NCBI GenBank assembly: GCA_004431415.1
Contig: QPMI01000075.1
Span: 54,642 to 118,641 of the forward strand
Reading direction: 5' to 3'
Source of the DNA: Cyanophora paradoxa CCMP329
Taxonomy: Eukaryota; Plantae; Glaucophyta
DNA: 64,000 nucleotides
Both the position numbers and the translations under genes were made by a program. Positions 12,867 to 64,000 of the stretch are shown one piece after another. The notes beneath the pieces were generated by a model that was given only the letters and a program-made list of their open reading frames with translations, was not told the DNA's origin and searched no databases. Within the stretch, counting starts at the first letter, position 1; each line of letters starts with the position of its first letter.

Positions 12867-13006
12867 GAGAGGCGCGAGTGTACGTTGTAGAGCCACAGGT
12901 ATAATTTTGTGCAATGCAGATGCATATTACAGATGCATAAAATTACAGCATCGACCTAGCCTAGTAGGCTTTGATGGGCGCCTGGGAACCTAGGGCCGGG
13001 ACACGC

Positions 13007-17009
<4,003 letters not shown>

Positions 17010-17116: not shown

Positions 17117-17990
17117 GGCCGGCGCTGCGCTCGTCCAAGAGCGGTCCTCCTCGTGCGCGAGGGTGCGCTTGGTCGCCCTGATCCGCCGCCGAACCTCGGC
17201 CCAATCAAAGTGGGCGGTACCCGTCCGTCGATGTCAAGATGATCGACCCGGAGCCGCGCTTCCCCGACGCGTTCGATGTGCTGCCGCCGCCTCCGCTGCT
17301 CCGTCCCGCGACGGGCAGAGCGCCCTCGCGCGCAGCCGGCGCCGCGAGCGCGCCGCGCTCCGAGGCAGCGACGGGCACCGCGCGGGCCCGCGATTCCCTC
17401 TTTCATCTTAGCCATCGTCGAGAGCAAGTCGCGCGAGATGCATACGCGTCGCTCGATTCGCGCAGCCGGCCCTGATCGCCGCGCCTGCGCAGATCTAGAT
17501 CGGCCTGGCGGCGTTCAACCTGCGCGCCCCGTCCCTCGTGCTGAACCAGGCGAGCGATGCGGCGCTCTATAGCCGCCCTCTCGCATCGCTAAAAGCGCTG
17601 TGCAGTTCAAGGACGGAGGCCCGCGCCGCCATGGCCAGCGCCTCGCTTCCCCCTCCCTGAGCGCCGACCGCGGCTCCCGCGTGGCGCGCTTGCGCAGCCT
17701 CCTACATCTACGCACTCGGGCAACTCGAGGTCTACAACCCAAAGGAGGCCCGCACGCCCGCCTTAGAGCAAGCTGAGCTCCCCGGCCCGATCCCACGACG
17801 GCGCCGCGCGCGCGCAGGTGGTGGTGCCGGCGCTGGCGGGCCCCGAGACGAAGCTGCACGCGCTGCTGGGCTCGGCCGAGCTCGCGATCGAGTACCCCAT
17901 GGCCACCAGCCGCGTCGAGCTCCCCCGCCGCCTCTTCGACGAATCCGGATCCCACGGTCCGCCCGCCGCCGGCGCCCCGGGCCCGCGGCA
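17117..17990 (+). pseudogene. MSH4 pseudogene fragment: upstream region plus first exons and introns, an inverted copy of ~36735-37590
   Basis: Closely similar to the reverse complement of the MSH4 5' region (PEPRFPDAFDV..; VVVPALAGPETKLHALLGS); an extra T near 17401 shifts the frame; the copy is truncated. Confidence 0.9.
17202..17217 (+). promoter_or_regulatory. CCAAT box plus GC box in the GK / psi-MSH4 divergent promoter
   Basis: ccaatcaaagtgggcgg, also retained in the MSH4 upstream copy (ccaatcaaatcgggcgg on the minus strand near 37463-37479). Confidence 0.45.
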
Positions 17991-19104: not shown

Positions 19105-19150
19105 TAATATCACTACCTACGGGGGGTTCGCCCCACCATAGTCTCTCAAA
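19105..19150 (+). repeat. Hairpin-containing ~45 bp repeat, copy 1 (short A tail)
   Basis: taatatcactacctacggggggttcgccccaccatagtctctcaaa, one mismatch to the copy at 30503. Confidence 0.85.
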
Positions 19151-29849: not shown

Positions 29850-30559
29850 GGTCAGACGGTTTCTGGCGGGGGACCGGAGGCGAACGATTTAATTTGGTAC
29901 GAAGATGGGCCCAGCGCGAGAATATTTGCCTCTCCCGCCTGGTTCAGCCCCATCGTCTGCCTTCCCTGTCACTACTGGCTTGCGTTTCGCCCCTCCTCTT
30001 ATACTGCCGATTCCGAGTCTGCACCCGAGCTCTGCCCCTTTCCTCGTGTCGTCCCCAGTTCCTCAGATTAGTCTTCAGCCGTCCATTGTTTTACCAACTC
30101 TACAATCTCGATTCCGTTTAGACACTCCGCCAGCTTCGACTTTCCCTCTAGTGGTGTCCTACGTTTCGCCTCTCCTACTGTTCTACCGCCTTTGCCTCCT
30201 GCGACTACGTCTTCTAGTTCTGCTGTTAGCTCTGTCTTGTCGTCTTCGTCTAGATCTTCGTCTTCGACTGTAGTTCCTCGTGCTCGTTCTCCTTATTTGC
30301 TGCGTCCCGTGCTCCTCGTCGTTCTAGTGTGACTAGTACTTCTGCATCGACGCCCTTGAGCTCTTCTACTCCTTCTCCTCGTGCTCGTTCTCCTTATCTT
30401 TTGCGTTCTTCTGATCGTGTCCTTTCTCGTGATCCCTCTTGATTCTGTATATATTTTGTGCTAGTTTACTGTATCTTTGATTTGTGATTGCTTTGTTGTC
30501 TTTAATATCACTACCTACGGGGGGTTCGCCCCACCGTAGTCTCTCAAAAAAAAAAAAAA
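29850..30559 (+). mobile_element. Probable retroposon (SINE/LINE) 3' remnant ending in hairpin plus poly(A)
   Basis: Strongly pyrimidine-skewed body, then CTACGG-GGGG-TTCG-CCCC-A-CCGTAG stem-loop, TCTCTC and A14 (30546-30559). The 5' boundary is uncertain and I found no TSD. Confidence 0.5.
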
Positions 30560-30661
30560 GAATTTTGAAGGCTTCGAAAATTCTAGATATACGTTTGAGA
30601 GCGCGAGCTCGTTCATAAAATTTGAAGCGACTTGAGCGATCGCGATCGCATGCGGGCTCCC

Positions 30662-34500: not shown

Positions 34501-37447
34501 TCATGTCCAGCAGGGCCACGCTGCGATCCATCCCGAGTTCAGATCCGGCTCGGGGGGGTACATGCTCGGGGCGGGTGGGGGTACGGTACCAGTCGGCGAC
34601 GCGGTGGAGGGGGTCGAGCCGGCCCCGCACGCCCGCCGCGAGGCTCGCCACCACTCTGCAAAAGGAAAGAAAGGGAAGGGAAGGGAAGGGAAGGAAGGGG
34701 GCGGACGACTCTGTGAGGAGCAGCATCTCGTCCTCGCTCTCGCGCGCCCGCGCCGAGAGGCTTGCCAGCGCCTCCGTCGTCCCCGTCTGCGCGCGCGCGG
34801 CCTCTGTATAAACGCCGAGGGGAGCCAGCGACAGTAAGCTTAGACCGGACGCACGCAGCGCCTGCCCTGCTTCGCCACCTGAGGCGAGGGAGGCGCGGCG
34901 CTCAGGGAGAAGCGAAGTGAAGAAAGGCTAAAGGAAGTGGTTGCCTGGACGAGGCCTTGGGGCAGCTGCTCGCCACCCCCCGCGAGGGCGAACGAGAGGA
35001 AGAAGCCGCGCCGCGGCGAGTGCTGCCCGGCGCCTGTTAGGGGAGGAGGCGGGGAGCGCGGGGGGGCCGCGGGGGGCGCGCGGCGGGCCTGGAGGCGAAG
35101 AGAGGGGATGCCCCACTCCGTCTTGTACCCCTGCACCAGCCGCTGCACGTCTGTCGTACCTCCGCCTGTCAGCCAACCGGCGGCGAAACCCTGAGAATGA
35201 GGGGGCCGGGCCCTCGTTGGTCTCGAGGTAGGTCTGCCGCGCGACGTCCAGCAGGCCGCTCGCCCCGCGCTGCGAACGAAGCGAAGGGGGTAGACAGAGG
35301 AGGGGGGGGGGATAAGACGGGGGGGTAGGGCGCCTTGACGGCGAAGCAGAGCTGGCGGCGGAGCTGCAGGGCCCCCCGCGCGTACGCCGCCTCCTCCTGC
35401 AGCACCTGCGGGGGTGTGGGGGGTACAGGGGCGAGGAGGGAGAGGGGATGGGGATGGGGGTACGCTTCCGAGCTCGTCGCGGAGGGCGGAGAGCTCCGGC
35501 GCCAGCAGAGCCGCCCGCATGTGCTGCCCGGTTCGAATTCGAGGCTGGAGTCAGAGCCCGGGGGGTACGGGAGAGGGGCCGGGGGGGGGGGTACGGGAGC
35601 GGACGCGGAGGAGGGGCCCCTCGGCGGGGGCGAGGGCCTCCGCGAGCACCGGCGCCGCCTCCAGCAGCTGCTTCAGGTACACCTGGGGGGGGTACGTGAA
35701 CTGGGAAGAAAAAAGCAAAACCGGGGAGGGGTACCAGGTTGCGGATGGAGGCGGCCGCGCCGGCCTCGGAGCGCTTCTTTCGCGAGTAGACGAACTGGGG
35801 TCCCGGGGGGGGGGGGTACGCGTTTGGGCAGGTAGGCGGGGTAGCCCCCACTTTGTGCTTCCGGCACCTGGGAGAGGAGGTGGTCGGGGTCCAGAAAGTT
35901 GGCGAGCGCCGCCTGCGGGGGTACGTGAGCAGACCGCGCTCCCGGGTACGCGAAATTCAGGCGGGGGGAGGGGTAGGGCGCCTGGCAGTCGAGGAAGAGG
36001 CGGTCCTTCGCGACGAGCTCGTCCAGGCAGTCCAGCCGCATCTGCGGGGGGCAGGGGTGGGGTACGCGTTCGATTCGGGGGTACGGGGCAGGAGGGAGGT
36101 GCGGGGCACGCGTTGATGGCCTCGCGGCGGGCGAGGGGCTGCAGGAGGCTCGTCCGCAGCATCCGCGCTGGGGGAGGGATCACCGGGGGGTGAAGGGGGG
36201 GGGGGGGGGAGGAGGAGGGTACCGCCGCTGGCTGTTCGGGTGAGGTTGAGGACTCCGAAGAGGGAGCGCCGCGGGTCCCCCGTGCGCACCCCGGCCACGA
36301 GCTGTGCATGTACCCCCTCTCAGGGAAGGAATCGGGAGGAGGGGGGGTGAAGGGGAGCGCTCGCTCGCCTCGAGGTTCGCGGCGGTGGCCGCGTCGATGA
36401 GCAGCTGCCCCTCGAACCCGCAGCACGTCACCTGGGATCAAATCTTCAGCGCGGGATCGAGTCTGAAGCCTTCGGGGGGGGGAGGGCGGGCGGGCCTTTA
36501 GGGCGCGCGGCTCGAACGCGACGTCCTGTGCCGCCTCCACGTGCCTCAGCAGCGCCCCCGCCGCCTGCACGCACAGGCCCCTGCCGCCCGGGTTCGGGCC
36601 CGCGAGGGCCCCGCGCAGCGCCGCGCACTTCCCGTTGGCCTGCAGCTCCGCGACGACGCTCGGCTGTGCGCTCGCCAGCTGCCCCAGCAGCGCCGCCCCT
36701 GCGCGCGCGTGGGCCTCGGAGACTGAGAGGGCGGCCGCGGCCGCGGGCGGCGGGCGGCGGGCGGGCCGTGGGACTCGTCGAAGAGGCGGCGGGGGAGCTC
36801 GACGCGGCGGGCGGGGTACTCGTCCGAGCCCAGCAGCGCGTGCAGCTTCGTCTCGGGCCCCGCCAGCGCCGGCACCACCACCTGCCCGCGCACGGCGCCA
36901 GCCCGACGGTCGCGGGACTGGAAGCTCGGCGTGCTCTAAGGCGGGCGTGCGTGCCTCCTTCGGGTTGTAGACCTCGAGTTGCCCGAGTGCGTAGATGTAG
37001 GAGGCTGCGCGCGCGCCCACGCGGGAGCCGCGGTCGGCGCTCAGGGAGGGCGGGAAGCGAGGCGCTGGCGGCGCGCGCCTCCGTCCTTGAACTGCACAGC
37101 GCTTTTAGGGATGCGAGATGCGACTATAGAGCGCCGCATGGCTCGCCTGGCTCAGCACGAGGGACGGGGCGCGAAGGTTGAACGCCGCCAGGCCGATCTG
37201 CGCGGGCGCGGCGATCAGGGCCGGCCTCTCGCATCGAGAGACGCGTACGCGCCTCGCGTGACTTGCCCTCGACGATGGCGACGATGAAGAGGGAATCGCG
37301 GGCCCGCGCCGTCCCCGTCGCTGCGCCGGTGCGCGGCGCGCTCGCGGCGCCGGCTGCGCGCGAGGGCGCCCTGCCCGTGGCGGGACGGAGCAGCGGAGGC
37401 GGCGGCGGCACGTCGAACGCGTCGGGGAAGCGTGGCTCCGGATTCAT
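31563..37447 (-). CDS. MSH4: MutS homolog 4 (meiotic MutS-gamma subunit), multi-exon
   Basis: IVAIVEGKSRE-IGLA start with no mismatch-binding domain I; LIDAATAANLE, SLFGVLNLTRT, LRRQLCFAVK, LLDVARQTY, GRHPILE, FVPNDT, ITGANMSGKSTYLRQ, STFFVEMSE, DELGRGT, TLFATHF, LYPNVRNYH, HYGI. Confidence 0.9.
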
Positions 37448-48540: not shown

Positions 48541-49263
48541 TCACTGGCCGAAGTGCGACGGTCCCCACTCGAGGTCGGGGTCGGGCCTTGGGGGCCTCCG
48601 GCGGGGTACGATGCTCCCGCTTGCCAGCTCCATGTACTCCCCCACGGGGTTGTCTTCGTCTGCAAGGTTCGCGTAGTTGCCCTTTACGAGATCCGCCGCC
48701 GCTTTGCGCCAGCGAACGGCCACGTTGTACGTGTTGTCGATGATGTTCTGCACTGTACCCTCCATGGGTATTAGGGACAGCCTATAGTCGAGGTTTCTCT
48801 TACGCAGGTTCAATTCCCTTTCGTAGTACTCCACTGCGTCTGGGAGGGCCCTGAGCTCCACCGCGTGCTCGCCCGGGTCCGACGAGCTAATGAGCCCGGA
48901 GCGCTGCAGTGCGTTCACAGCCGCCCGCAACACGATTTTGCCTACCCCCCGCATCGAATCCCTCTGCTCGGGCGTCCCGTATTCCCCCTGCGGCCCGTAA
49001 TCGTTGTAGTAGCTTTCTATTTCGACGGTGGCTGGTTTATTGCCGACCTGAGGCTGGACGGAGCCGTACACCCATGCCATAGCGTCATTGTCCGCTGAGC
49101 GGGCTTTCTTGGAAGGGGGCGGCAGCACTTCGATTTTGAACTCCCTGGTCCGTCGGTTGACGAGTGTTTTTAGATTGAGGGGGAGGCGCGTATCCCCGAA
49201 TTTATCAGGAAAGAGGCGGTGTAGCTTAAACCACGCTTCCTGATCACCGTAGGTGTACGACAT
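48541..49263 (-). CDS. Putative GNAT acetyltransferase (intronless)
   Basis: Acetyl-CoA motif A-like MRGVGKIVLRAAV followed by VELRALPDAVEYYER; NLS-like PPSKKAR. Confidence 0.6.
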   Translation of the reverse strand: MSYTYGDQEAWFKLHRLFPDKFGDTRLPLNLKTLVNRRTREFKIEVLPPPSKKARSADNDAMAWVYGSVQPQVGNKPATVEIESYYNDYGPQGEYGTPEQRDSMRGVGKIVLRAAVNALQRSGLISSSDPGEHAVELRALPDAVEYYERELNLRKRNLDYRLSLIPMEGTVQNIIDNTYNVAVRWRKAAADLVKGNYANLADEDNPVGEYMELASGSIVPRRRPPRPDPDLEWGPSHFGQ

Positions 49264-49300
49264 TTGCTCGCGGCTCGCTGAGAATTTATACCTGTACCCC

Positions 49301-50002
49301 CTACTCGCGGTCGGGGTACCTGTCGCCGGGCATCAGCCTCGCGCGCTTGCGCAGCTCCGCCTCCCCGGGTAGCCAGTTCTTCGGGTCGTTGCTCCACTCC
49401 TCCCATTCGCGTATGTCTCGCCTGACGTCACGTGGGGCGGGGGCGTTTATCGGTGGGGCGGGCGGGGCTGGCAGGGCCAGGGGCGGGGGGTTGAGGCCCC
49501 TGTCCCACGAGTACTCGGGGTATCTGTCCCATCCCAGGGGTACCAGATGTGCTGGAATCGGCTCGACGTCGTAGTTGGGATCTCTGGCGTTATGATAGTC
49601 ATAGCTCGTGACGTACTTCGTCACGGCCGAGCGCAGGCGCGAGAGGTCGCGCCTATTTACGTCGTCCCGTTCCGAGTCCCTTGCCTTCGCGTACCACTGG
49701 AGGATTTGCATTCGAATGTGGTCCGGGAGGGTCGAGAGAAAGCTGAGCTTGGAGCCCAGGGCGAACCAAATGCGCTTGAACTCATCGATAATCCTGCCCT
49801 CATTGTGGCTTCGAAGGTAGTGGGCCCCGCCAGCGTTGTAATGGCCGTCCAGCCACCCTTCGTTAGCCAGCCTTAGCACCGCCCACGGGACGCGCGGTCG
49901 ATTCGGTCGCGAGGCCTGCTCAACCACCCAGCGTCTAAGGTCCTTGACCTGATCTATGAACTCCGCGATCACGTCCTTGGGCGCTTCCTCTGCAGCCGAC
50001 AT
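49301..50002 (-). CDS. Hypothetical protein (intronless, ~233 aa)
   Basis: Clean ORF with protein-like composition, ATG 50002, Pro-rich linker, preceded by the element's upstream motif. Confidence 0.65.
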   Translation of the reverse strand: MSAAEEAPKDVIAEFIDQVKDLRRWVVEQASRPNRPRVPWAVLRLANEGWLDGHYNAGGAHYLRSHNEGRIIDEFKRIWFALGSKLSFLSTLPDHIRMQILQWYAKARDSERDDVNRRDLSRLRSAVTKYVTSYDYHNARDPNYDVEPIPAHLVPLGWDRYPEYSWDRGLNPPPLALPAPPAPPINAPAPRDVRRDIREWEEWSNDPKNWLPGEAELRKRARLMPGDRYPDRE

Positions 50003-50054
50003 TTGCAATTGCACACATCAAGAAATTCTAAACGCTACTGCGAAGCTAGGAGCT

Positions 50055-50708
50055 ATGGACTGCGAGACTTGCGAGAACTTGCAACAGGGGAGCGCGGCGT
50101 GGCACGCGGCGCGCCGTGAAAAGCTAACTGCCTCGAACTTTGCGGCTGCGTGCGGCATAAATCCCTGGAAATCCAGGGCCCGCCTCTGGGCGGAGCTAAG
50201 CGGGATAGCGGAGGAAAACAACTTTGACAACCCTGCCCTAACCTATGGGCATGACTATGAGCCCCTCGCGGTCTCTATCTACAAGGCACTGAACGATAAC
50301 GTTGACATTAAACATACTGGACTGCACGAACATAAAGAAATGCCGTTCCTCGCCGGTAGTCCCGACGGACTTATAGGAAATGATAGAATTTTAGAGGTGA
50401 AATGCCCGTACAAGGGCGAACTTTATGATAGAGTTCCTACCTATTATATGCCTCAACTGCAAGGACTTCTGGACATCACGGGCCGCGAGTGGGCCGAACT
50501 TTTTTGCTTCACTCCTCTGCGCGTGCAAACGTGGTACGTCAGGCGCGACGAGAGGTACATCGAGCTCATGAGGAAGTGCTTACAGCTATTTTGGATGCAC
50601 GTAAAGGCGGGGACTCCGCCCGAGCCCTACAGCGATCGAATGAAGTCAGAGAACCTCAGCGAGGAGCAGCTAGCGCTTAGGGAGTTCAAGACGTACGCGC
50701 TGATGTAG
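50055..50708 (+). CDS. YqaJ-like viral recombinase / lambda-exonuclease family nuclease
   Basis: QGSAAWHAARREKLTAS, YGHDYEPLA, FLAGSPDGL, LEVKCP, YYMPQLQGLL. Confidence 0.93.
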   Translation: MDCETCENLQQGSAAWHAARREKLTASNFAAACGINPWKSRARLWAELSGIAEENNFDNPALTYGHDYEPLAVSIYKALNDNVDIKHTGLHEHKEMPFLAGSPDGLIGNDRILEVKCPYKGELYDRVPTYYMPQLQGLLDITGREWAELFCFTPLRVQTWYVRRDERYIELMRKCLQLFWMHVKAGTPPEPYSDRMKSENLSEEQLALREFKTYALM

Positions 50709-51152
50709 CGGCTCAGGCCCAGGCCGGGTAGGCGAGTCTGTAATGAATCAGACCGCGCAGGATTTGGTTGAGCTGCTCGGTGCAGGGGGGCGGGAAGGCG
50801 AGGCCGCGGAGGGCCATAGAGACGTAGCGGAAGGGGTGGGGGAGGCGGCCCCTGTTATCCCACATGGCGTCCACTATGGCGTTGTGGACCATTTGCTCGG
50901 AGAGGGGCCGGAGGGCGGGGCGGGCCTGCGCTCACCGTCTCAGTGTCGTTCAGTGGCCCGGGAAGTCGTCCTCGGGGCTGAGTACCGGCGGCATGTCATC
51001 GTACGGCGAGTTGGCGACGGCCGAGGTTTACGCCTCGCTTCATTCGAATGCAGAAGACCTAGCTATCTTACGCCTGGCACTACTTAGCTAGATGCACGGG
51101 ATAGCGCATCAGGTTGGGCCCTGAGGTACGGCAGCTCAAGGCTGCTTTCCCG

Positions 51153-52140
51153 GGAACCACGTATCATAATACGTTGGCGATCGACCAGGGCGGATCGCCG
51201 TATGCCATTCCGGCCTCGCCCTTGCGAGTTCCGGAACAAGAACTCTCCGGGGTAAGCGCGCTAGGCGCCTGTACCCCGGGGAGGGCCGTTGCGGGTCGAG
51301 ACGGTGTACCCCGCTCGGGGGTACTCCTCTCGGGGCCGTCGCGGGGCCGATCGGGTACCCCGCTCGGGGGTACACTTGATCGGGGCCGCTCTGACGCCGT
51401 ACCCCTCTCCGGGGTACGCGTTCGGCCTCGGGCCGCGCCTTGTGGGGCCGGTTGGGGCGAACAGCGTACCCCGGGGAGGGGTACGCGGTTTCTTCCGGGT
51501 TCGGGGATCCGAAGCCGGGTACCGCCGCCGGAGGCCGCGGGGGTGAGCGTAGCGAACGCAGCACGAATGCAGTACCCCCTACCACGCGCATAGCGTGTCC
51601 GTCGTCCGCAGACGACCATGAGACCAAGGGGTCGTACAACATACGACAACCGAGGCTCATCAAAAACCAACAGGACTCCGAAACATGCGCGAAGTCTCCC
51701 CCCGCGCCGGGGCGGCAGACTCGAAAACCCAGCAAGTTACCGCGGGAAAAACCGCGTAACGGTCATGCGCTGGACCCCGGCTCGGCACCCGCGGGTCCAG
51801 AGGAAAAACAGGGTAAAACCCAGCGGTGAAAACCCGAGATTCTCCACGAAGCCGCGCGACTGTTTCTTGGGGGCGCGCTGGACCCCGGCCCGGCACAAGT
51901 GGGTCCAGCGGACGCGCGTGGAAAACGAATGACGACCGGTACACCGAGTCTGCGCGGTTCGTGCCCGAATCTTCGACGGGACTATTGTAAATTACCACGG
52001 ATCAGCTGTGCACGACCACGTCCGCGCTGGTGGCCGGCACCGAGCGGGAGTAACATCCGGAACCGTGTGCACAGGAGACGACAAGGAACCACGTATTATA
52101 ATACCCTCGGCGAACGCTGGCGCTGGTCGCCGTATGCATT
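51153..52140. promoter_or_regulatory. Hairpin- and repeat-rich non-coding spacer, candidate origin or recombination region
   Basis: Two ~55 bp structured copies (51153, 52085), GTACCCC..GGGGTAC palindromes (51270-51484), and two CTGGACCC/GGGTCCAG stems (51770, 51878). Confidence 0.5.
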
Positions 52141-52523
52141 GCCTTTTTTGCGCGAACTTTTTGCGGCGCCGGGGCTCGCTGGGTGGCGAGGTTCGGCGCC
52201 CCGGAAGGAAAAATCGCGGGGAGGTGGGCGGGAGCGATTTCGCTTCGCCGCTGGTCGCTTCGTGGCCTGGAGCGGCCGCGAGCGAAGCTGGGCGTGAAGG
52301 GAAACCCCGAATCAGCGTACCCCCCGGAGCTCGGCGGCTTCAAGCCCGCCGGCTCGGCCCAACGGCTAGCTCAGCTAGTCCCTTGCGGGACGCTCGCTGC
52401 AGCCTGCTGCTTATCCCGTGCTCGCCTCGCGCCGCTCCGCGGCTAGCGAGTCGCTCAGCTCTTTCGTGCCTGGCGCTCGGCTACGGTCTTCTTTGTTCGC
52501 ATTCCGTCGGCGCAAAACTCGAT

Positions 52524-55255
52524 TTACGCATTGAGAGCGCAAATCCCGACCTGCGACGGCGGCGGCGAGCCCGGGGCGGCCGAGCCCTGCGTGGCGAGGG
52601 CCGCCGAGCGCGCCGAGGCGAGCGAGGCCTGCGAGGGTGCCGGCTCCAGCTCCATGTCGAAGACGCCGCCCTCCACGGCGACGGCGACGGGGACGACGGG
52701 CGGCGAGGCCGGGATCGCGCGGGCCTGCTGCGTGGCGGGGACCTGAGCCGAGAAGTTCTCGAGCCGCCACTCGCGGCAGCCCGGGCACTCACCTGGACGA
52801 GGGGCTCGCGGTTGGCGACGGGCGGCGTCGGCAGGGCCTGCGTGGGGCGTCACTTACAGAAGCCGAAGGCGCCGGCCTTGTGGGGCGGGGCGTCGGGGTC
52901 GCGGGGCGTGCTATAGGCCTCCGAGCCCTCCGATTCAGAGTCACTCACCGGGCTGAGAGGGTGGGGTGAGAAGAGGCCGAGGCGGGCCTTCTTGGCGGGC
53001 AGGAGGTGGGAGCCGTTGAGGGCGCAATCGGCGCGGTGGGCACACCTCTCTCCGTAGGTGGGGCAGAGGGCCGGGGCCGAGGGCGCCGGAGCCAAGGACG
53101 CCGGAGCCGAGGACGCCGGGGGCTGGAGGAGGCGGTGAGAGGGGCCGAGGAGGAGAGGAAGGGGGAAGGGCGCGGGCACCGGCGCCTCGACGTCCCAGTC
53201 CGCCAGCTCGGGGAGGCCGTGCTCGTCGAACGCCAGCGCGGGCCGCCCGCTGAAGCCGAACGGGGCGGGGGGCGAGAGCGCGTTGTCCCCGACGCCCCAG
53301 ACGGCGCTGAACGCCGCATCGTCCCAGCGCGCCTCCGCCTCCGCCTGGCCCTCGTCCCTTGCCTCGTCCACCTCCTTGGCGGAGAGCGACCCGATCTTGA
53401 TGATGGAGGCCTGGATCAGCACAAACTCGCGCTGGAAGAATTGGACGAGCGGGATGGTAACTGCGGGAGAGGGGGTGAGCGGGGAGAGCGCGGGGCGCAG
53501 GCCAAGGGCGGGGGCGCAGGCCAAGGGCGGGGCGGACGCACATTCGATGCCGTAGGCCACCTCCTTGATGTAGCGGCCCCGGCGGCCGATCTCCTTGGCC
53601 AGCATGCTGCACTCCTTGCGCGCCGGGTGGCCGTGGCCCCACTCCATGGCGATCATCGCCTTCGCCAGACGGACGCCCTCGATGTGCCACTCGTCCATCA
53701 GCGCCTCCAGATTGGCGCAGATGCGCATCCAGAAGAAGACGCGCTTGAGCTTGTCGCGGTCGAATTCGGCGTCGCCGCTCTTGCTGCCCCAGTCGCGCAG
53801 GTCCGTCTCCTCCGCCTTCTTCACCTTGTCGTACCAGCACTTGATCTTCTCCGCCTGGCGCTGGAACTCGTCCGCCCGCGCCGTGAGAACGTCCGACTCC
53901 TCCTGCGCTCCGAGGGCCCGGGTCAGGGAGGAGAGGCGGGCTAAGCGGGGCGGCGGCGGACCGTGTGCGAGAGCTCGCCGACGATCACGGAGATGGCCGC
54001 CGAGAGGATCTCACGGGCGCGGGCCGGCCCGTTTGGGTGGCCCTCGCGCAGAACCTCCTCCAGCTTCAGCACGGCCGCCCGCGCGAGATCGCGGTGGCGC
54101 TGGCGGGCCTCGTCGCTCCGGCCCTGATCCACGAGAAGCTGGAGCTGGGGCCGCATGCCGGAGTCGCAGACGCTGGCGTACTTCCGAAGGGCCGCGCAGG
54201 AGAGCACCTTCTGCACGCTGACCAGCCAGTACGCGTAGCCCAGCGGGCTCTCCGCGCTCGGGTTCTCTCCGACCTGCGGACGCGACCTTAGCGCGCGCAG
54301 GGGCAGGGGAAAGGGGAAAGGGCGGGCTCTCGCGCACGTAAATGTCATCGGCGCAGGAGAGGAACATGTGATCAACGACGTCGAAGAAGCCGCCGGACGG
54401 GAGCGTGCCGACGCCGTGGTACGCGCCTTGGATGGTCTCACCGGCGCAGATGCCGGCCTGGACGGTGACGGTGTACTGCGAGGCCGGCGGCCCCTCCTTC
54501 ACGTAGACGAAGTTGAGGTCGTACTTCTTGGCGTACGTCGGGTTGATGCGCTTGGTGACGATGACGTAATCGCACCGAACGCCGAGGCCGGACGGGCTGG
54601 CCTTCTCCTTCTCCGTCACCGACGCCAGGCACTGATCCCGCGCGATCAAGAGCTGCGGCGGCCCGCGCGTGAGCAAGCGCGGGCACGCGAGCGCAGGGAA
54701 GGGCCCTCACCCCGTGGGCGCCGCCGCTGCCGGATTTGAGGTCCGCGAGGAACTCCTTCTGCTCCGGAGTGCCGGAGAAGATCGCGCGCGGATGGAAATC
54801 GCGATGGAGCGCGATGCTGTTGAAGCAGCCCGCCGCCGCATTGTCGGACATCAGCAACAGCGCCACATCGCCGTGCGTGAAGCCGTACTTCGCCTTCACA
54901 TACTCCGGCAGCTCGTGAATGCTGTAAGGCACGATCTGCGCGCGGGGCACGCGAGCCGGGGCATGTGAGCCGGGGCCGAAGCGGTGCGGGCGAAACCGCG
55001 AACCTCGTTGAACTTATTAACCGGCGTGAACTGGCCCTTGGTCTTCAAGCGCTTCGGGTGGCCGTCCGTGTTCTGGATCTTCTTCAGCCCGCCGAACGGC
55101 TCGAAGCGCGGCACGCCGGCCGAGTTGAACACGCTATCGTAGGTCATCGCGTTGAGCGCCTCCTCCGCCGATAGGCTGCCGAGATCGCGGGCTATGCTGT
55201 CCTGCTCGCCGGGCTGCTGCTGCTTCGCGCAGGAGCGGAAGGTCGCCGCCTGCAT
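52524..55255 (-). CDS. Intron-containing element protein with possible 2OG-Fe(II) dioxygenase-like domain (3' end uncertain)
   Basis: Exons join from MQAATFRSC; contains CFNSIALHRD (HxD) and IQGAYHGVG (distal His), then a helical region and a low-complexity tail with PAKKARL. Confidence 0.55.
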
Positions 55256-55550: not shown

Positions 55551-56930
55551 ATGTCTCGGCTCGCGCTCCCTCCGGAGATCCCGGCTAAGCTGGCGAGGAA
55601 CACGCTGTACGACGTTCTCTGCATCGGCGACAGCTTCGGCATCGATTGGACGGTTTTCGAGGCCGGCATCAGCGACCAGGCGAAGGAGGCGCAGGCCCGG
55701 GCGCTGGAGGATGGCATGCAGTTCAGCCCGAACAGCAAGGATGTGCTGCGCAAGACCGAGCTGGCCGAGCGCAAGCGCAAGCTGGCCGCGGCGCAGACTT
55801 TGAACGCCGAGGGTGCCCCCGGCCCGTCGGTGCAGTTCTCCATCGACTCCGTCCTGTCGCGGCTGCGGCTCGCGGAGGTGCTCGCTGCCTCTTTCTCTCT
55901 GCGCTCGCAGCGGCTGAGGCGCCGCGGCGCATCGCAGGACGCGGACGTGCGGGCGATGCACGCGGCGCTGAACATGACGGAGGAGAACTTCGACACGCCG
56001 AGCAAGCCGAAGCCCGGGCGCGATGCCGACGCCCGCCGGCTGTTCGCGGCGCAGCGCCTGCGGCTGCTCATGGGCGCCGTGCCCCGGCACATCGCCAAGG
56101 GCGAGTGGCGCACGATTGGCCTGCTGACGGGCCCGGAGGAGTTCTACTTCAACCGCATGGCGGAGGCGGCCGGGCACCTGCTCTGGCTGCTGGTGCTCAG
56201 CTCGGACCCGGCCTACAAGCCCGAGGTGCGCCCCAGCCGCCCGTGCAGCCGCGACCGCCCCTCCCCGCCGACCCCGCCGGCCCGCAGATGCTGGCGAAGG
56301 GCATCATGGGCATCGAGGTGCGCTGCATCAAGAAGAACAGCCGCGACTTCATCACGCGCCACGAGAGCTCGGCGGTCTGGGGCGAGCGGCCGGACACCGG
56401 CGTCCTCACCGACGCCTACGCCATCCGCATCGTGCTGGAGGCGGCCTGCCGGACGTGCCGGGACCGCCACGGGCGCCAGGGCATCTGCGCCTTCGACCTG
56501 GTTCCGGAGTTCGAGGTGCCCGGCGTCACCATCGGCGACCGCGTGCAGGTGCGCCGTTTCTATTTGGATGCTATTTAGATGCTATTTAGACTATTTAGAT
56601 GCCATTTAAACCCCCTCGCAGGTCATCCGGCGGTGCTCGATGCCGGACTCGCACGGGCGCCCCATGATCCACGGCGCCGTGAAGTACGTGGTGCCGCGGC
56701 GCACCCTCGCCCTCGCCTTCTTCGTCCCCGTCTTCGACAAGGCGGCCGCCGCCGCCGCCGCCGCCGCCTCCCGCCCCCGCCCCATGCTCGCGGCCACGGA
56801 GTCCTCGGATTCCGGCTCGGATTCCGAGGAGGAGCGCGACGCCGAGGCCGCCGCCGCGGCCCGGGCGCTGGACTTCACGGAGGAGGAGCTCGAGCGGGCG
56901 CGGAGCCTGCGCGCGCCGGCCGGGAGATGA
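55551..56930 (+). CDS. Intron-containing hypothetical element protein (CxxC motif, acidic tail)
   Basis: Four exons join in frame from MSRLALPPE to ..LRAPAGR*; CRTC motif; its TGA overlaps the next ATG. Confidence 0.65.
56561..56610. repeat. 11 bp tandem repeat (TATTTAGATGC)n inside an intron
   Basis: tatttggatgc tatttagatgc tatttagac tatttagatgc catttaaa. Confidence 0.8.
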
Positions 56931-59900
56931 CCGCCGTCTTCAAGGCGGCGATCGGCGAGGCGACGGCCTCCGCCTCCGGCGACGGGGCCGGAGTTAGCAA
57001 GATCACGGCGGAGGGCCTCGCGCGCGCCATGCGCGTGGCCCAGGCCCAGGCCCAGGCGAAGGGCAAGGGCAAGGGCAAGGTCGCCTACATCAACCTCAAG
57101 TTCGAGAAGGAGGACGTGCCCGCCCCGGCGGCGCGGCGCGATCTCGGCGAGCAGATGGAGGCGGCGGCCCCCAAGGCGGCCGGCCCCGAGCCGGCCGGTG
57201 CGCCCTCCCCACCCCAAAATTCTGAGCCTAGGGCGTTCCGGCGCCGCAAAGGAATGACCCTGCCCACAGAGGAGGAGCTGGAGGCCGAGCGCGAGATGGA
57301 GGAGGAGGCCGCGCTGGCGGCGGCGGCGGACGCGAAGGCGGCGCGCGAGCTGGAGGTGGCGGAGGAGTACGCGATGGAGCTGGAGCGCGAGCGCGAGCGC
57401 GAGGGCGAGGCCGACGCCGAGCTGGCGGCGGCGGCGGCGGGGGACACCTTCGAGCCCGAGCCCCCGTCGACGAGTTCTACCCCCTCCCGCCCTCCCCCTC
57501 CCTCGAGTACGCCCCGCCGCCGCCCGTGGAGGAGTTCTCGGACGACGAGCCCGGCGACGCTGGCCCCAGGCCGCCCCTCGTCTCCCCCCGCCGCCCGCCC
57601 GCCCCCGTGCCCCCCGCCAGCCCCGCCGCCTCCGACGTCTCCTGGCGCCCGAGCGGCAACCCCTCGGCCTTCAGCCCCGTCCCGCCGTCGCAGCGCTCGC
57701 AGCGCTCGCAGCGCCCGCCGCCCTCCGTCCAGGGTACCCCCCTCGCCCGCCCCATCCCCTCGCCGCCGCGGGGCACGCCCGTCGCCACGCCCGTCTCCTC
57801 CCTCGGCCACATGCCCCCTCCGCCCCCTCCGGCCCCCCGCGCCGGCCGCCTCTCCCGCCGGGCCCAGCAGCGGCGCGAGCGCGAGCGGCAGCTGCTGCGC
57901 GATCAGCGGGCGGAGGCGGAGGCGGACCACGACGACGGCCAGGCGTCGGAGAGCGACGGCGAGCCGCCGCGCGCCACCAGGCTGGAGCTGGCGCGGGCGG
58001 AGCTGGCGGCGCAGCCGCGCGAGGCGCCCGAGATCGACATGTCCAAGTACGACGACGTGACAACGTACAGCAAGGACAACAAGTCGAGGAAGGAGGCGGC
58101 CATTCAGGATGCGCTCCGCCTCTTCGTCAAGAACAACGTGCGCCCCGCCCCCCTTAGAGGCCGGAGGCGGCCGTGGCCCAGCTGCGTAAGGCGCTGGGTC
58201 CGAGCCGCCTTCGGCCGGTGCGCCCCCCTCCCGCGTTCGAACCCCGCTAACCCCCTTTTGCCGGCGCAGCGGATCGTGCGCCAGAGACCCTACGGCCCGA
58301 ACTCCCCGCCCACCTTCTACGTCGAGCTCCCGAACCTCTTCGTGTACGACAAGGTCAGCGCGAACAGGCACGCCGGGCGCGGGACGATGAAGGAGGTCAT
58401 CCAGCTGCTGGCGATGACCTTCCACAAGACCTACGAGTCCAGCCCCGGCTCCTTCGAGTTCACCTTCTCGAAGGAGGTGCTCTCGGGGCGGACGCGCACG
58501 TTCGTGGAGGAGTCCCTCCAGCTCGAGGACGTCTGCCCGAGATGCCCGTCATCCCCGGCTTCGCCTTTGCCTGCGACACGCGTGCGCCGCCCGTACCCCT
58601 GCGCCCCGCCCCGTACCCCGCCGACGCCCCTTGCGCAGATTTCGTGGTGCGGGCGCCGCAGGACAGCACGGGCAGCGCCTGCACCCTCGTCATGTCGCAC
58701 GAGGAGGCACGGGAGCGGTACGCGGGCTACATGAACACCTGCTACATCCAGGGGCGCCTGCCCGCGGGCATCGAGGAGGCGGCCGAGACGTGCGACTGGC
58801 CCGCCGTGTACGGTATGCTGCATCCCTTCATGCCCAACGTCGTCAAGCACCTGGCGGACAACGGCTACGTGACGGCCGACGAGTTCGGCTACGCGGCGGC
58901 CGTCCTCTACGCCTTCAACCTCGTCGGGCCGTGGAACTTCTGCGACAAGCCCGTCTTCGACCGGGAGCCGCGCGCGGAGATCGAGCCGCCGTCCGAGGCG
59001 CCATGCTGCAGTACTGCGGCATCATCAAGGGCCAGTCGGGCACGGGTGCGCCCCGCCCCCGCCTTTCCCTCTTCCTTTTCCTGAGACCCCGCGCGCGCAG
59101 GCAAGTCGATGGTGACGCAGATCATGACGGAGTGCCTGCCGCCAAGCCGCGTCTGCGTCTACCGCCCCTCCAAGGGCTCGGCCTTCTCGGAGCACGGCGG
59201 CGAGGAGGCGATCTGCATGGTGATGGCGGAGGGCCTCGACCCTAAGGCCTGCTCGGAGGAGGAGCTCAAGATGCGCTCCGGCGACGCCTACTCCCGCAAC
59301 TTCAAGAACGTCCGCGGCGACGACGTGCGCACCAAGGCGACGCGCAAGGTGCTTGTCATCGTCTGCAACAGCTTCCCGCAGGTGCGCCCGTTCCCCTTCC
59401 CCTCCCCGGCGCCCTTTCTCACTTGCCCCGGCGCAGCTCGAGAACCGCATGCTCGAGTTCTTCGCCCGCGTCGTCCTGATCCCCCTCGACCACAAGCCGG
59501 CCAAGAAGCGCACCTACCTCCACTCCGACATCCGCGAGAACGAGCTGCCGGCGCTCATGGTCGCGGCCTTCACCTTCGCGTGGAAGATCATCCACGCGCT
59601 CTCCGACGGCAAGGCCTCCTGCATCCAGGCCTTCGAGCCGGCGTGGCTGCGGGCGCAGCGCCTCGGCTTCTGGCAGGAGACGGCCTCCTGCCCCCTCACC
59701 CGCTTCATCATCACCCACTGCGCCGTCGACCCCACCACCTACGTCGCCGCCCCGAACACGGAGGGCTGGATGACGAGCGTCGCGGGCATCGTCGAGTACA
59801 TCGCGCGCACGGAGGGCCCGGACACCTCCGCCGCCGTCGGCGCCGACATCGAGAACGGCCGGCTGGACGAGACCCTCGCCGGCTTCGGCTCCTGGTGCCG

Positions 59901-60755
59901 CCTCTACTCCTACAAGCTCGGCGGCATCTGGCAGACCTACATCCGCGGCATCGCCCCCAAGGCCCCGCTCTCCCTCGGCGAGAGCCAGCCGGCGCTGGAG
60001 GCGATCGCGATCCCCGTCGCCCAGTTAAAGGACCCGGTGGACGACGTCGGGCCCTTCCTCGTCAAGCCCCACACCAAGGGCAAGGGCAAGCGCACCCGCA
60101 ACTCGGCGCCGGCCTTCCTCCCGCCCCAGCCCCCCGCCACGGCCCCCCAGCAGCGCCCCGGCCAGCAGCGCATCGACGAGATGCTGCCGCGCCAGGTCCG
60201 GCCCCGCGTACCCCCCGCCTTCCCTGTACCCCCCCTCCCCTCGCCCCCCTCCTGATCCAAGGGCAGGGTACCCCGGCGAACGGCGGCGCGGGCCCGAGCG
60301 GCCACGGGAGCTCGGCCTCCCCCGTGAGCGCCGACGGCCCCAGCCCCGTCCCCGGCCCCGGCGCCGTCCTCTCCGCGATCCAGGGCTTCGGGGCCCAGCA
60401 GGAGGCGGAGCGCCGGGCGGCGGCGGTGCGGCAGGAGCAGGAGCGGGAGCAGCGGCGCGTCGGCCTCTGGCACCAGCGCCAGGGGCAGGTCCTCGCGGAG
60501 CGGCTGGACCTGGAGACGGGCGTCCGGACGGGGCAGGTCTCGGGCACCGATGCCGTGGCGCGCTGGCGGGCGATCGAGGCCGCGACCGTGGCGCTGGCGG
60601 AGCAGCTCGGCTACAGCTACCGGCGCGTCGCCGTCCCGCACTCGTACGGGCGGCGGGCGGCGCGGGAGGCCTCGCGGGCGGATATCGACGCGGCGGAGGA
60701 GGTGGCGGCGGCGACGGAGGCCCACGCCCAGACCTTCCGCCACCTCCACCACTAG
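56927..60755 (+). CDS. D5-like superfamily 3 helicase (multi-exon; apparent 1-nt frameshifts)
   Basis: Walker A GQSGTGKS after removing intron 59046-59100, Walker B-like ICMVMAE, motif C VIVCN, Arg-finger region FFARVVLIP; long acidic/Pro-rich N-terminus. Confidence 0.8.
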
Positions 60756-60808
60756 AGCGGCCGCGGGCTAGGTATTTTTTCTCAACCCTCCCTCAATTCG
60801 GTCCCGCG

Positions 60809-61000
60809 ATGGCCCTCGCTGACTCGTATCCTGCCCATTATAGCCTTGGAGCCCTCGCCGCGACCCTCACCTGGCTCCTCGGCGGCACCCCCACCGCCTC
60901 GGCGGTCATCGGCGTGGGCTTCGGCTACGCCGCCAAGACCCTCTACGCCCCCGGCTCCGTCTCGATGGCGACGGCCGGCATGCGCCCCGCCGGGCGCTAA
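60809..61000 (+). CDS. Small hydrophobic protein (63 aa)
   Basis: Two hydrophobic Gly/Ala-rich segments; upstream TTTTTTCT motif. Confidence 0.55.
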   Translation: MALADSYPAHYSLGALAATLTWLLGGTPTASAVIGVGFGYAAKTLYAPGSVSMATAGMRPAGR

Positions 61001-61113
61001 CTTTTCCCTTTTCAAAGTTTTCCAACGTTCATTCCCCCTTTCCCTTTTCCAAGTTGCTCAAGTCCGTCGACGTTCCCTTTTAAATTTTCTTCATTCACGT
61101 TACACGTCTGAAC

Positions 61114-61611
61114 ATGCCGAACGCCGTAGAGAAGCTGTTGTGTACAGTGTTCAAATCGGACTCGCGCTGCAGCAAGATCGGCGAGGCTGCCAAGGGCGGG
61201 GGCGGGGCGAAGGCCGGCGGCGGGGCGGAGGGGCCTAAGATAAGGGGCGCGGACCCGGCGCCGCCGGCGCTGAAGTCGATTAAGGCTGCGGGCAAGGGCC
61301 GCGGCGTCGGGCCCCTGCCCCTCGTAGCGATCGCCCCCGGCCAGAGGGAGGCGGCACACGCGGCGACGGCGGCGCTGGCCTCGCAGCAGCAGAGGGAGGG
61401 GGCGCCGCGCCTGAGCGCCGGCCTCTGGTCGCAGCCTGCGCCCGCGCGCGAGTACGGCGTCAGCGCCTTCTTCGACGGCGCGAACGAGCTTAGCCGCCAG
61501 GAGATCTGGGCCTGGGAGGCGCGGCGCGCGGTCGACGGGCACCTGCCGCTGCTCGTGGCGCTCGGCGGCTCGCTCCTGATGGTCTGGTACCTGCGCGGCC
61601 TCGCGATTTAG
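61114..61611 (+). CDS. Hypothetical protein with C-terminal TM helix
   Basis: Intronless ORF ending LPLLVALGGSLLMVWYLRGLAI; upstream AAATTTTCT. Confidence 0.65.
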   Translation: MPNAVEKLLCTVFKSDSRCSKIGEAAKGGGGAKAGGGAEGPKIRGADPAPPALKSIKAAGKGRGVGPLPLVAIAPGQREAAHAATAALASQQQREGAPRLSAGLWSQPAPAREYGVSAFFDGANELSRQEIWAWEARRAVDGHLPLLVALGGSLLMVWYLRGLAI

Positions 61612-61637
61612 ATAGATTTTCGGAGTCTAGGGCAAAG

Positions 61638-62039
61638 ATGGGCTGGGTAGACGGCCTCCTCACCAAGGTCTTCGGCCCGAAGAGCGCGCAGCCGCCGCCG
61701 AGCTTCAACCTGGCCGCGGCGATCAGCACGACGATCGAGCGCAAGAACAACGAGCTCATCCTCAAGAACGACGGCAAGCTTCCCTGGGCCGACGTGGCCG
61801 CGGGCGCGCTGGGCAGCACGTTGACGGGAATTGATCGGACGGGCGCCGCGGGCGTGAAGGTCGGGCAGGCGGTTGCGGCCGTGCCGGAGCTTGCGATGAA
61901 GGGCTGGCACTACGCCAAGATCGCCGCCGGCGTCGCCGCGGTGCTCCTTGCGATCTGGCTCGCGTGGCAGCTGCGCGGCGCCTACCAGGGCGCGCGGCTT
62001 CAGAGCGCGCAGCTCGACTATTTTCTAAAGGCTAGGTAA
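61638..62039 (+). CDS. Hypothetical membrane protein (MG start, amphipathic N-terminus, C-terminal TM)
   Basis: MGWVDGLLTKVFG..IAAGVAAVLLAIWLAWQL. Confidence 0.7.
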   Translation: MGWVDGLLTKVFGPKSAQPPPSFNLAAAISTTIERKNNELILKNDGKLPWADVAAGALGSTLTGIDRTGAAGVKVGQAVAAVPELAMKGWHYAKIAAGVAAVLLAIWLAWQLRGAYQGARLQSAQLDYFLKAR

Positions 62040-62051
62040 AGCGGGCGAACC

Positions 62052-62429
62052 ATGCCCCGCGGCGGCTCTTCCCCCCGTGTCTCCTTCGCTGAGGAGAACG
62101 CAGCGGACGCTACCCCCCTGGAGCCCGGCGTCAAGCTGGAGCGCGCGAACGCAGTCTCCACCAAGAAGGCCAAGCGCGCGCTGATGCTAGCGGAGGAGAG
62201 CCCAAAGGTGCAGCAGGAGAGTCAGATCATCGCATTCAACAAGCGCAAGACGTACAAGGCGATACGCGAGGGCCAGCTGCTGCCCACGGACGCGGTTCCC
62301 GGCCTGCCGGACACTACGGCCGGCGAGCTCCTAGTGCGCAACCTGCGCCTGCAGTACGTCTCCCGCCTCCGCCGCTCCAAGGCCAAGAAGGCGCGCCTGG
62401 ACTCGGGCGATAGCAGCGCTAGCTCGTAG
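62052..62429 (+). CDS. Basic hypothetical protein with RVxF motif and NLS
   Basis: SPRVSFAE near the N-terminus; RRSKAKKARL near the C-terminus; 12 bp after the previous stop. Confidence 0.65.
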   Translation: MPRGGSSPRVSFAEENAADATPLEPGVKLERANAVSTKKAKRALMLAEESPKVQQESQIIAFNKRKTYKAIREGQLLPTDAVPGLPDTTAGELLVRNLRLQYVSRLRRSKAKKARLDSGDSSASS

Positions 62430-62445
62430 GGCTTTGTACTCAATA

Positions 62446-62730
62446 CTACCAGTTCCTGTTCCTATCCCAGAGCACGACTCGGGTAAAGGGCACGGTCATA
62501 GCGAACATGAACTCGGCAAACTTGGAAAAGTTCATGAGGGTCCCCAGGCGCGGGTCCTCCCAGTAGATCGCTTCGCGCAGGGCCTCGTAGATGCGCATGA
62601 GGGAGCGCTCGTTCTCGGTCGCGAAGGCGTCGGAGGGCTCGTCCGGGTCCGGATCCGAGAGCTCCGAGTACTCGTCCGAGCTGCCCGCGCTCTCGACGCC
62701 TGCGGCCGGGTCGGGCGAGGGGTCAGCCAT
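62446..62730 (-). CDS. Small acidic hypothetical protein
   Basis: Intronless 94 aa ORF with upstream ATTTTCT. Confidence 0.6.
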   Translation of the reverse strand: MADPSPDPAAGVESAGSSDEYSELSDPDPDEPSDAFATENERSLMRIYEALREAIYWEDPRLGTLMNFSKFAEFMFAMTVPFTRVVLWDRNRNW

Positions 62731-62757
62731 TCTTAAAGCTAGGGCTAGAAAATCGGA

Positions 62758-63096
62758 CTAGCGCCGGTACTCCATCGAGTCGCCGCGCCAGTACTTGTTG
62801 CCGGAGGCGAGCAGCTTCATCGGCTCGCCCGTCGAATCGTGCGTCCAGGCCTCGCCCGTCCAGACGGCCGTGCCGCCGTCCTCTAGCTTGAGGCGGTGGC
62901 CCGCCTCGAGCCGATCGCCGTTGAGCATGCGGCCGGCCATGAGCGCCAGGTCCCACTCGGTGAGGCCGCGCTGCTCTTCGGGGGTGAGGCCGCGCTCGAC
63001 GCGCTCGGGCTGGCGCGCCTCGCGCTCCATGCGGCTGAGGCCCACTAGGAAGAAGATCGGCAGCGCAAAGGCCATGAGATCTAGCAGGGCCTCCAT
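62758..63096 (-). CDS. Hypothetical protein with N-terminal TM helix
   Basis: MEALLDLMAFALPIFFLVGL; upstream CTTTTCT. Confidence 0.65.
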   Translation of the reverse strand: MEALLDLMAFALPIFFLVGLSRMEREARQPERVERGLTPEEQRGLTEWDLALMAGRMLNGDRLEAGHRLKLEDGGTAVWTGEAWTHDSTGEPMKLLASGNKYWRGDSMEYRR

Positions 63097-63107
63097 TGAG
63101 AAGGGAC

Positions 63108-63398
63108 TTAGAAAAGGTTCCGGGCCAGGCCCGAGAGCTGCGGGCCCAGGCGCCGGGCGGCGTAGTAGAGCGCGGCGGCCGCGGCGGCCAGGATCAGGAG
63201 GCGAGGCGGGCCGCGCGCGGGCTCCTCCAAGGTCAAGTCCACGGTCTCGGGCTCGCGCGCCGACGTTGCCAGGATCTCGGGCTCGGAGCTGAGGGACTTG
63301 GGCCCGCGGCGGCGGCGCTGCTTGGGAGCGGAGGCGGCGGCCACAGAGAGAAGGTCCTCGGGCTCCTGCTTGATACCTGCACAGTCAGCAAAGTCCAT
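63108..63398 (-). CDS. Small protein with SUMO-site, NLS and SIM-like motifs and a C-terminal TM helix
   Basis: ATG 63398: MDFADCAGIKQEPE..PKQRRRRGPK..ETVDLTLEE..LLILAAAAAALYYAA. Confidence 0.6.
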   Translation of the reverse strand: MDFADCAGIKQEPEDLLSVAAASAPKQRRRRGPKSLSSEPEILATSAREPETVDLTLEEPARGPPRLLILAAAAAALYYAARRLGPQLSGLARNLF

Positions 63399-63568
63399 GC
63401 TTGCTGGGTACCTTGGAAAATTGTGATAGCTCACGTGAGCGCTCAGCTGAAGAGGGGGGGAGAAGTGACGCGGACGCGTCCCAAACCCGTCACCGTCACA
63501 GCGCAAGAGACTTGGACTCGGGGTCCCGGCCAAATTCTCGCCGGCAAAAAATCTAGGGGTACGGCCAA

Positions 63569-64000
63569 ATGACTGCTATCCCAGCAGAGAGGGAGTTCCT
63601 GTCCAACGCTATGAGAAGGGCAGAGGAGCTGGAAGTGCAGAAGGCCATGCGCCTAGCGCTCAGCGGCTCGCTGGAGAACCAAGGCAGGAGGCTGGCATTA
63701 GAAGAGGCAAAGGCGCGGGGCGCTAGCGCAGACGAGCTAAGCCAGTTCGACTGGGGCCCGCAGCGCTTAAGGCCCGGAGGCCAGGCCGGCCAGGTCTTCC
63801 CGGCGCCGCCGGCGCGCTCGCCTAACGATGTGTTGAACCTGCAGTTCAACTACCAGACAATGCTGAGCACGATAGAGGAAGCGGGCTGGCAGCTTCCCGA
63901 CGCCGTGCGCGAGCGCATCGCTTACTACGTCTTTGGAGAGGGAGAAGAGCAGCTGTGGAAGCTCACAAGGGGCGTGTTCGCGGGGCTGTTCGGCGAACCG
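63569..64000 (+). CDS. Hypothetical protein, open to window end (absent from ORF track because it has no stop)
   Basis: MTAIPAEREFLSNAMRRAEELEVQKAMRLAL..; 144 codons without a stop; upstream AAATTCT. Confidence 0.65.
   Translation, partial: MTAIPAEREFLSNAMRRAEELEVQKAMRLALSGSLENQGRRLALEEAKARGASADELSQFDWGPQRLRPGGQAGQVFPAPPARSPNDVLNLQFNYQTMLSTIEEAGWQLPDAVRERIAYYVFGEGEEQLWKLTRGVFAGLFGEP

Follow-up and report, generated by a model that had tools for sequence, protein, structure and literature searches.

Our results indicate that an intron-split D5-type helicase gene resides in a young, multi-copy, virus-like element of the nuclear genome of the glaucophyte Cyanophora paradoxa, and that this gene is real and expressed, the RNA status of the sequencing runs concerned having been guessed. 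The window, by which we mean the whole stretch of 64,000 nucleotides that was analysed, holds one copy of the element in its right-hand part. With a probability of roughly 0.6, we read this multi-copy, multi-gene element as a polinton-like endogenous virus (PLV) carrying an intron-split SF3 helicase gene of the D5 type.

The helicase gene (55551-60755, forward strand) comprises nine exons and eight introns, and in other copies it encodes about 1,500 amino acids. An N-terminal domain without family match (residues ~1-335) is followed by a low-complexity linker, a pre-ATPase region, the SF3 ATPase and C-terminal domains. Six of the introns, all on the forward strand and joined in RNA-type contigs, are located at 55878-55937 (intron 1, 60 nt), 56226-56287 (intron 2, 62 nt), 56549-56621 (intron 3, 73 nt), 58138-58269 (intron 4, 132 nt), 58582-58638 (intron 5, 57 nt) and 60196-60266 (intron 8, 71 nt). 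The remaining two, on the same strand, are each 55 nt long and read GTGCGC..GCGCAG, namely intron 6 (59046-59100, phase 1) and intron 7 (59382-59436, phase 0). An earlier note on this DNA had placed the former inside the Walker A motif and the latter after motif C, and both placements hold: splicing of intron 6 joins GGC CAG TCG GGC ACG G to GC AAG TCG and restores GQSGTGKS, removal of intron 7 yields VIVCNSFPQ/LENR, and both are joined in RNA-type contigs. Intron 6 contains an in-frame stop when read in the frame of the downstream exon. Short introns of host genes in the window, e.g. in an LRR gene, likewise read GTGCGC..CGCAG, in agreement with the host style that had been ascribed to the donors and acceptors. 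All eight introns are of the GT-AG type. They are mutually dissimilar (pairwise score at most 0.60) and so do not match introners, which are near-identical repeats.

Evidence for splicing comes from public sequencing runs. Screening 24 runs with words taken from 57900-60300 identified 17 that hold half or more of them, while five runs of the same species contained none and two a small share; the contigs of four of the 17 (X1, X4, X7 and X14) were compared. X1, X4 and X7 are RNA-type runs from three studies, a status that was guessed automatically, and contigs of this kind cannot show expression levels. The contigs of all three join across both 55-nt introns, as the RNA check proposed in the earlier note would have it, and across six more introns of the same gene; among the joins listed, seven of the eight were found in all three RNA-type runs and that of 56226-56287 in two. 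A single X7 contig of 1,410 nt covers at least three joins from 57935 onward. The contigs of X14 run through four of the helicase introns, and this run behaves as DNA. The intron inside Walker A is joined with the window's own flank only in X1 and X4, and a one-letter variant of the join occurs in X7 and also in a single contig of X14, which has a depth of 698 and a shorter side of 29 letters; the comparison was made at 90% likeness, a level prone to false joints. This DNA-type contig hints that some genomic copies are without the intron, i.e. that it is polymorphic among copies. A comparison of intron positions among copies, also proposed earlier, showed for intron 4 a homologue that the subfamily-B model P0011 translates as if it were coding (61% over 36 residues), which makes this intron older than the subfamily split, and for intron 6 the possible absence in one X14 contig.

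The window copy of the helicase gene appears not to be intact. Compared with the cleanest model (P0007), its frame changes four times, near 56910, 57460, 58535 and 58996, the last break lying 34 nt upstream of Walker A. An extra base relative to the window was present at 58535 and 58996 in all four runs, and at 57460 in three of the four. The four frameshifts may reflect decay or assembly error; the Cyanophora paradoxa assembly was built from long reads, according to the available part of its description (PMC6704402). Since the run contigs differ from the window copy at many positions, the transcripts seen are likely to derive from sister copies and not from the copy in the window.

SF3 helicases are defined by Walker A (GxxxxGKS/T), by Walker B, B' and C motifs within about 100 residues, and by an arginine finger after motif C. 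All five were found, in the SF3 order and on the forward strand: Walker A GQSGTGKS (59030-59108), split in the Gly codon preceding the Lys; Walker B CMVMAE (59214-59231), which, aligned to D5-type helicases, keeps the Glu and has Ala in the first acidic place; motif B' KMRSGD..RNFK (59268-59306) and motif C VIVCN (59355-59369), both recognised by sequence and alignment; and the arginine finger of FFAR (59467-59469; R383), invariant in the four-row alignment A2. Motifs B' and C and the helix after them align to D5-type helicases. The Walker A pattern is present in 21 of 36 helicase models, many of which are partial.

Profile searches point in the same direction. A profile of the two Cyanophora subfamilies, searched against 1.84 billion representative proteins, gave 22 matches, consisting of 18 host models and P0037, P0038, P0039 and P0040; the sole identified non-host relatives were P0037 (E 1.3e-5) and P0039 (E 2.2e-4), both of which contain D5_N and DUF5906. 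Comparison by hhalign gave 96% against each of the two, and, as both were discovered with the helicase query, their back-score of 54 bits is not independent. One of two profile rows matched PHROG 1156, a 'DNA primase', at E 0.0013, and the nearest Atlas neighbours were VapE/DUF5906 at 0.80-0.88 (below 0.9), which we regard as a lead only. A two-row profile found no match in a PDB sequence search; the four-row profile found the SaPI5 primase-helicase 7OLA at E 6.5e-11, a value partly carried by the two non-host rows. P0037 lies on a 22.9-kb JGI/IMG contig, and its N-terminal part shows, by eye, PolA-like motifs of the TVpol-S3H type. Locus L001 was rejected as a relative, being an unrelated tail-like protein hit by chance.

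Pfam and NCBIfam were less informative. The HMM check of the spliced protein proposed earlier did not bring out a helicase family: across all 15 spliced models scanned, no Pfam family passed its cut-off, the best match being AAA_22 (E 0.002-0.17), which is sub-threshold and covers the P-loop only, and an NCBIfam scan of the helicase models gave no match. Residues 1-335, in which a primase or polymerase was sought, matched nothing in Pfam, NCBIfam, PHROGs or the Atlas; no D5_N was found by Pfam before the ATPase, where the likeness to the relatives amounts to a short NGYV match. By-eye ideas of an HUH, TVpol or SGNH lipase fold for the N-terminal domain found no match. AlphaFold2 gave a pLDDT of 31 for the helicase region. 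Relatives were absent from other eukaryotes, both among EukProt models and in the set of 1.84 billion proteins; none of the helicase or of P0037 were found in viral, metagenome and prokaryote contigs, and tblastn against phage and plasmid sequences gave no match. Taken together, the motifs and the individually weak profile matches agree, and support the assignment, from sequence, of the ATPase as a very divergent D5/P4-type SF3 helicase. The earlier note's suggestion that the gene would be missed by searches based on ORFs is correct for this gene, the four exon frames scanned giving no Pfam match at all, but the spliced models also stay under every Pfam cut-off, so that divergence hides the helicase as much as the introns do.

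The helicase gene is not single. Searching with its middle exon retrieved 24 EukProt models from Cyanophora paradoxa, which reach about 1,500 aa when complete and one of which (P0001) matches the window exon at 100%. Helicase models or pieces of them occur on 31 named contigs and fall into two subfamilies that are about 70% alike; over the exons used as queries, likeness between most copies is 97-100%, from which we conclude that they are young and that their spread is recent. For the partner gene described below, 41 models in 22 clusters were found, and the named contigs that carry them number 20. Helicase and partner models occur together on 14 contigs, in every case within three gene numbers of each other, and seven models from copies extend beyond the helicase and take in small ORFs of the stretch 60773-62426. 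By protein models, the unit common to the copies is thus at least 11.7 kb long (50.7-62.4 kb). The full unit probably spans from 48.5 kb to beyond 64 kb, the membership of the blocks at 48541-50708 and 62446-64000 being deduced, whereas linkage in other copies covers 50.7-62.4 kb. Some copies are rearranged or deleted and keep the 3' part: at 59612, contigs of X7 and X14 fuse the helicase 3' part to other upstream sequence that ends like an intron acceptor, and models P0026, P0029 and P0031 begin matching at the same position.

The age of the copies bears on the long co-evolution with the host that the earlier note had proposed. A host-like GC3 (0.96-1.0 for the helicase and partner genes, against 0.95-1.0 for four host exons) and the intron common to subfamilies 70% alike are in its favour, but the 97-100% likeness of most copies indicates recent spread.

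The partner gene (50710-55255, reverse strand) is read divergently from the helicase gene, encodes about 700-800 aa with at least five predicted introns and has no known family. Its last exon lies near 50716-51050, at the ends of the partner models and against the stop of the YqaJ gene. Within it, a non-coding stretch at 51100-52480 contains four palindromes of the form GTACCCC..GGGGTAC, hairpin repeats at 51767 and 51875, and a 20-nt repeat at 51153 and 52085; it may be a long intron, a nested insertion or an origin-like region. At 54805-54390 (reverse strand) the partner shows HRD and HGV motifs that are spaced as in 2OG-Fe(II) dioxygenases. Identification as a TET/JBP dioxygenase was not supported: no Pfam match was obtained, a profile of 64 phage TET sequences scored below shuffles and hhalign gave 0.14%. 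The control family, represented by a Tet_JBP-like gene of mycobacteriophage Nigel (L004:626-1744, at the left end), has 125 relatives in viral contigs. Tyrosine recombinase and DDE transposase were by-eye candidates without a match. A PDB sequence search with the partner returned nothing meaningful, neither the partner nor the YqaJ gene has relatives in the viral, metagenome and prokaryote contigs, and AlphaFold2 gave a pLDDT of 34 for the N-terminal half of the partner.

The two spliced genes are flanked by intronless ones. A gene of the YqaJ/lambda-exonuclease family (50055-50708, forward strand; Pfam E 7.9e-29, TIGR03033 over cut-off) stands tail to tail with the partner gene. Beyond it, on the reverse strand, are two ORFs of 240 and 233 aa without known family (48541-50002), whose membership of the element is suggested by the upstream motif they share with the others; the ORF at 48541-49263 looks GNAT-like by eye (RGVGK..LRALPDAVEYY), a likeness without Pfam support. 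To the right of the helicase gene, four small ORFs of 63, 165, 133 and 125 aa are encoded on the forward strand (60809-62429); three of the four have hydrophobic stretches by eye, and three of the four recur in models on other contigs. Three small ORFs of 94, 105-112 and 96 aa follow on the reverse strand (62446-63398). A further ORF on the forward strand (63569-64000) runs off the window, so the element likely continues. GC3 in the eleven intronless ORFs is 0.65-0.94. No CpG depletion was detected (o/e 1.04-1.11).

In the right-hand block (60774-63550), each small ORF is preceded at 14-40 nt by an AT-rich motif, (A/T)(A/T)TTC, which mostly reads ATTTTC. Counting 14-40 nt before the ATG, the motif is found at all 11 intronless ORFs, versus none of the two spliced genes of the element and none of four host starts; the pattern was picked after viewing the right block, and the ORF starts were chosen by the analyst. 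As background, the motif precedes 19 of 277 and 12 of 249 ATGs where the host DNA is GC-rich, and 55 of 397 in an AT-richer block. The strict form ATTTTC occurs six times in the last 3.25 kb (mean 0.72 and maximum 5 in 1000 controls). Because the motif also stands between divergent genes, it fits a promoter and not a terminator, and by its position it may be called promoter-like.

Other repeats were seen in the host part of the window. An inverted duplicate of about 700 bp, 86-95% alike (17248-17946 and 36771-37441, 19 kb apart), brackets a block that is richer in AT (GC 0.47-0.60 at 19-31 kb) and contains a gene with many introns whose product resembles a membrane protein. At the edges of this block is a 46-nt motif (19106-19151 and 30504-30561), the second copy with an A-tail resembling the 3' end of a retroelement. 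Parts of adjacent host genes, which by eye resemble MutS and a dioxygenase, are duplicated in inverted orientation (30831-31130/35074-35376 and 31181-31275/44752-44846), and a 48-nt repeat occurs five times at 12537-13040 with a spacing of 82-177 nt.

Of the traits of a PLV, multi-copy integration with conserved gene order is observed; a usual but not strict trait, the lack of introns, does not apply to the helicase gene with its eight joins. PLVs form units of 15-40 kb with terminal inverted repeats, and no pair of such repeats was found within 47.8-64 kb. The 15.5 kb visible (48.5-64 kb) yielded no major capsid protein, A32 packaging ATPase, polymerase or integrase, be it of the rve or the tyrosine recombinase type. 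As virion genes are absent from the visible part, the element is not classed as a PLV; likewise, of the 'viral-type SF3' helicase named in the earlier note, the SF3 part is backed by motifs and profile matches, and 'viral' is likely, the visible part having yielded neither a capsid nor a packaging gene. The same absence is what one would expect of a mobile element that replicates itself without a capsid, resembles a transposon, transpoviron or plasmid, perhaps derives from a PLV, and spreads inside the genome by means of the helicase and its partner. Such a resident transposon would also suit the young copies (97-100% alike), the host-like introns and codon use, and the existence of the rearranged copies that keep only the 3' part from 59612 (P0026, P0029, P0031). 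However, eleven intronless ORFs with a common upstream motif and a YqaJ gene are a virus-like cargo, and no transposase or recombinase motif was detected, so that we think this explanation somewhat unlikely.

D5-type helicases and YqaJ are genes of nucleocytoviruses. The content of the element could therefore recall a repeated piece of a giant-virus or mirusvirus insertion, the more so as punuivirus and mirusviruses are known to have spliceosomal introns and as giant-virus insertions are reported in C. paradoxa in the accessible part of PMC12344493. We consider this improbable: ordinary host genes lie less than 1 kb from the left block, the 15.5 kb contain no giant-virus marker, and a small element better accounts for dispersed, nearly identical copies in their dozens. 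Very improbable indeed is a family of domesticated host genes, or a cellular AAA+ ATPase, that segmental duplication has multiplied, which the introns, the host codon use, the transcripts in unstressed-looking public runs and a best Pfam match to the generic AAA_22, below cut-off, might suggest, but this match covers the P-loop alone while B', C and the next helix align to D5-type helicases, no relative was found in other eukaryotes and a block of small virus-like ORFs travels with the helicase. As to a grouping with a cellular AAA+ family, the objection raised in the earlier note, no such family passes the Pfam cut-off in the spliced models, and the nearest non-host relatives, two sequences with weak E-values, carry D5_N and DUF5906.

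Under the preferred reading of a polinton-like endogenous virus, the mRNAs of helicase and partner would, in ordinary cultures, be products of host RNA polymerase II and the spliceosome. The helicase would assemble into a ring that uses ATP to unwind the DNA of the element during replication, its N-terminal domain, which has no family match, sitting where a primase or polymerase usually stands. The intronless small genes with their common AT-rich motif may constitute a separate program of viral type, transcribed by a polymerase of the virus or of a helper virus, and genes for capsid and integration would lie past base 64000. We would further suggest, as a tentative proposal that may well prove wrong, that the element represents a new lineage, still spreading, of small endogenous DNA viruses or of replicons without a capsid. 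This lineage would have handed its replication module to the transcription by polymerase II and the splicing of the host but kept an intronless module with virus promoters; public collections would as yet contain no relative of it, and the gain or loss of an intron within the Walker A codon could be observed among dozens of living copies.

A young multi-copy element with a spliced and transcribed helicase is a case that PLV surveys using prokaryotic ORF finders would misannotate. It also extends the latent/lytic two-module layout of a giant virus to a small element, and, in a cultured and sequenced alga, it allows direct tests of nuclear replication, helper dependence and intron gain.

Several studies provide a background for this element. 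In the sections available to us, PLV surveys call genes with prokaryotic ORF finders, assuming that introns are absent, and contain many elements without a detectable replication enzyme (PMC10120064, PMC9356565), and EMALE virophages are described with upstream motifs of this sort and without introns (PMC8547959). PLVs with SF3 helicases are common, as far as the accessible text goes (PMC11161782; bioRxiv 2026.06.19.733378, the latter with the word 'intron' 0 times in that text). Among glaucophyte PLVs, the part seen of table S6 of PMC12220804 has 156 elements, 40 with D5_N by column count, and the Cyanophora element may be among them. Some unassigned transcripts with introns are mentioned for PLV regions of Cymbomonas in the available portion of PMC10675990, and the accessible pages of the Halocafeteria preprint have nothing on spliced genes. 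In the openly accessible papers and main texts of preprints covered, we found neither this Cyanophora element nor any small endogenous virus with a spliced SF3 helicase.

With D5/P4-type SF3 primase-helicases (D5_N and DUF5906, TIGR01613, 7OLA), the Cyanophora protein shares Walker A, B, B' and C, the arginine finger and an L..I.ENEL helix. It differs from them in its identity of about 20-30% and in that no primase or PolA domain was detected upstream, and its gene differs by a 335-aa N-terminal domain without family match, a long low-complexity linker and eight introns. PLVs, virophages and EMALEs, including the glaucophyte PLVs, are likewise multi-copy and gene-dense, with an SF3 replication gene and small ORFs that have a common upstream motif; five of the 11 Cyanophora motifs read AT-rich plus TCTA like the late motif of mavirus and CroV, as given in the available part of PMC8547959. 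Genes in PLVs and EMALEs are described as intronless, whereas here two large genes are intron-rich at host GC3 and the helicase is transcribed. The punuivirus of Chlamydomonas, in the accessible text of bioRxiv 10.64898/2026.10.09.758095, resembles the Cyanophora element in that genes with introns and a host-like character stand next to intronless ones that bear a viral promoter motif; however, it is a single giant virus of 506 genes, while the Cyanophora element is small and multi-copy, and its replication helicase is itself spliced. Spliceosomal introns are likewise found in viral core genes of intron-rich mirusviruses, where, in the part of PMC12768974 at hand, they are enriched in virion genes, and in the dinoflagellate PLVs invaded by introners, which, according to the available text of PMC12166617, are repeats, unlike the eight Cyanophora introns. 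Introns are already known in mirusviruses, in punuivirus and in dinoflagellate PLVs; in the literature covered, a spliced helicase in a small virus-like element appears to be new.
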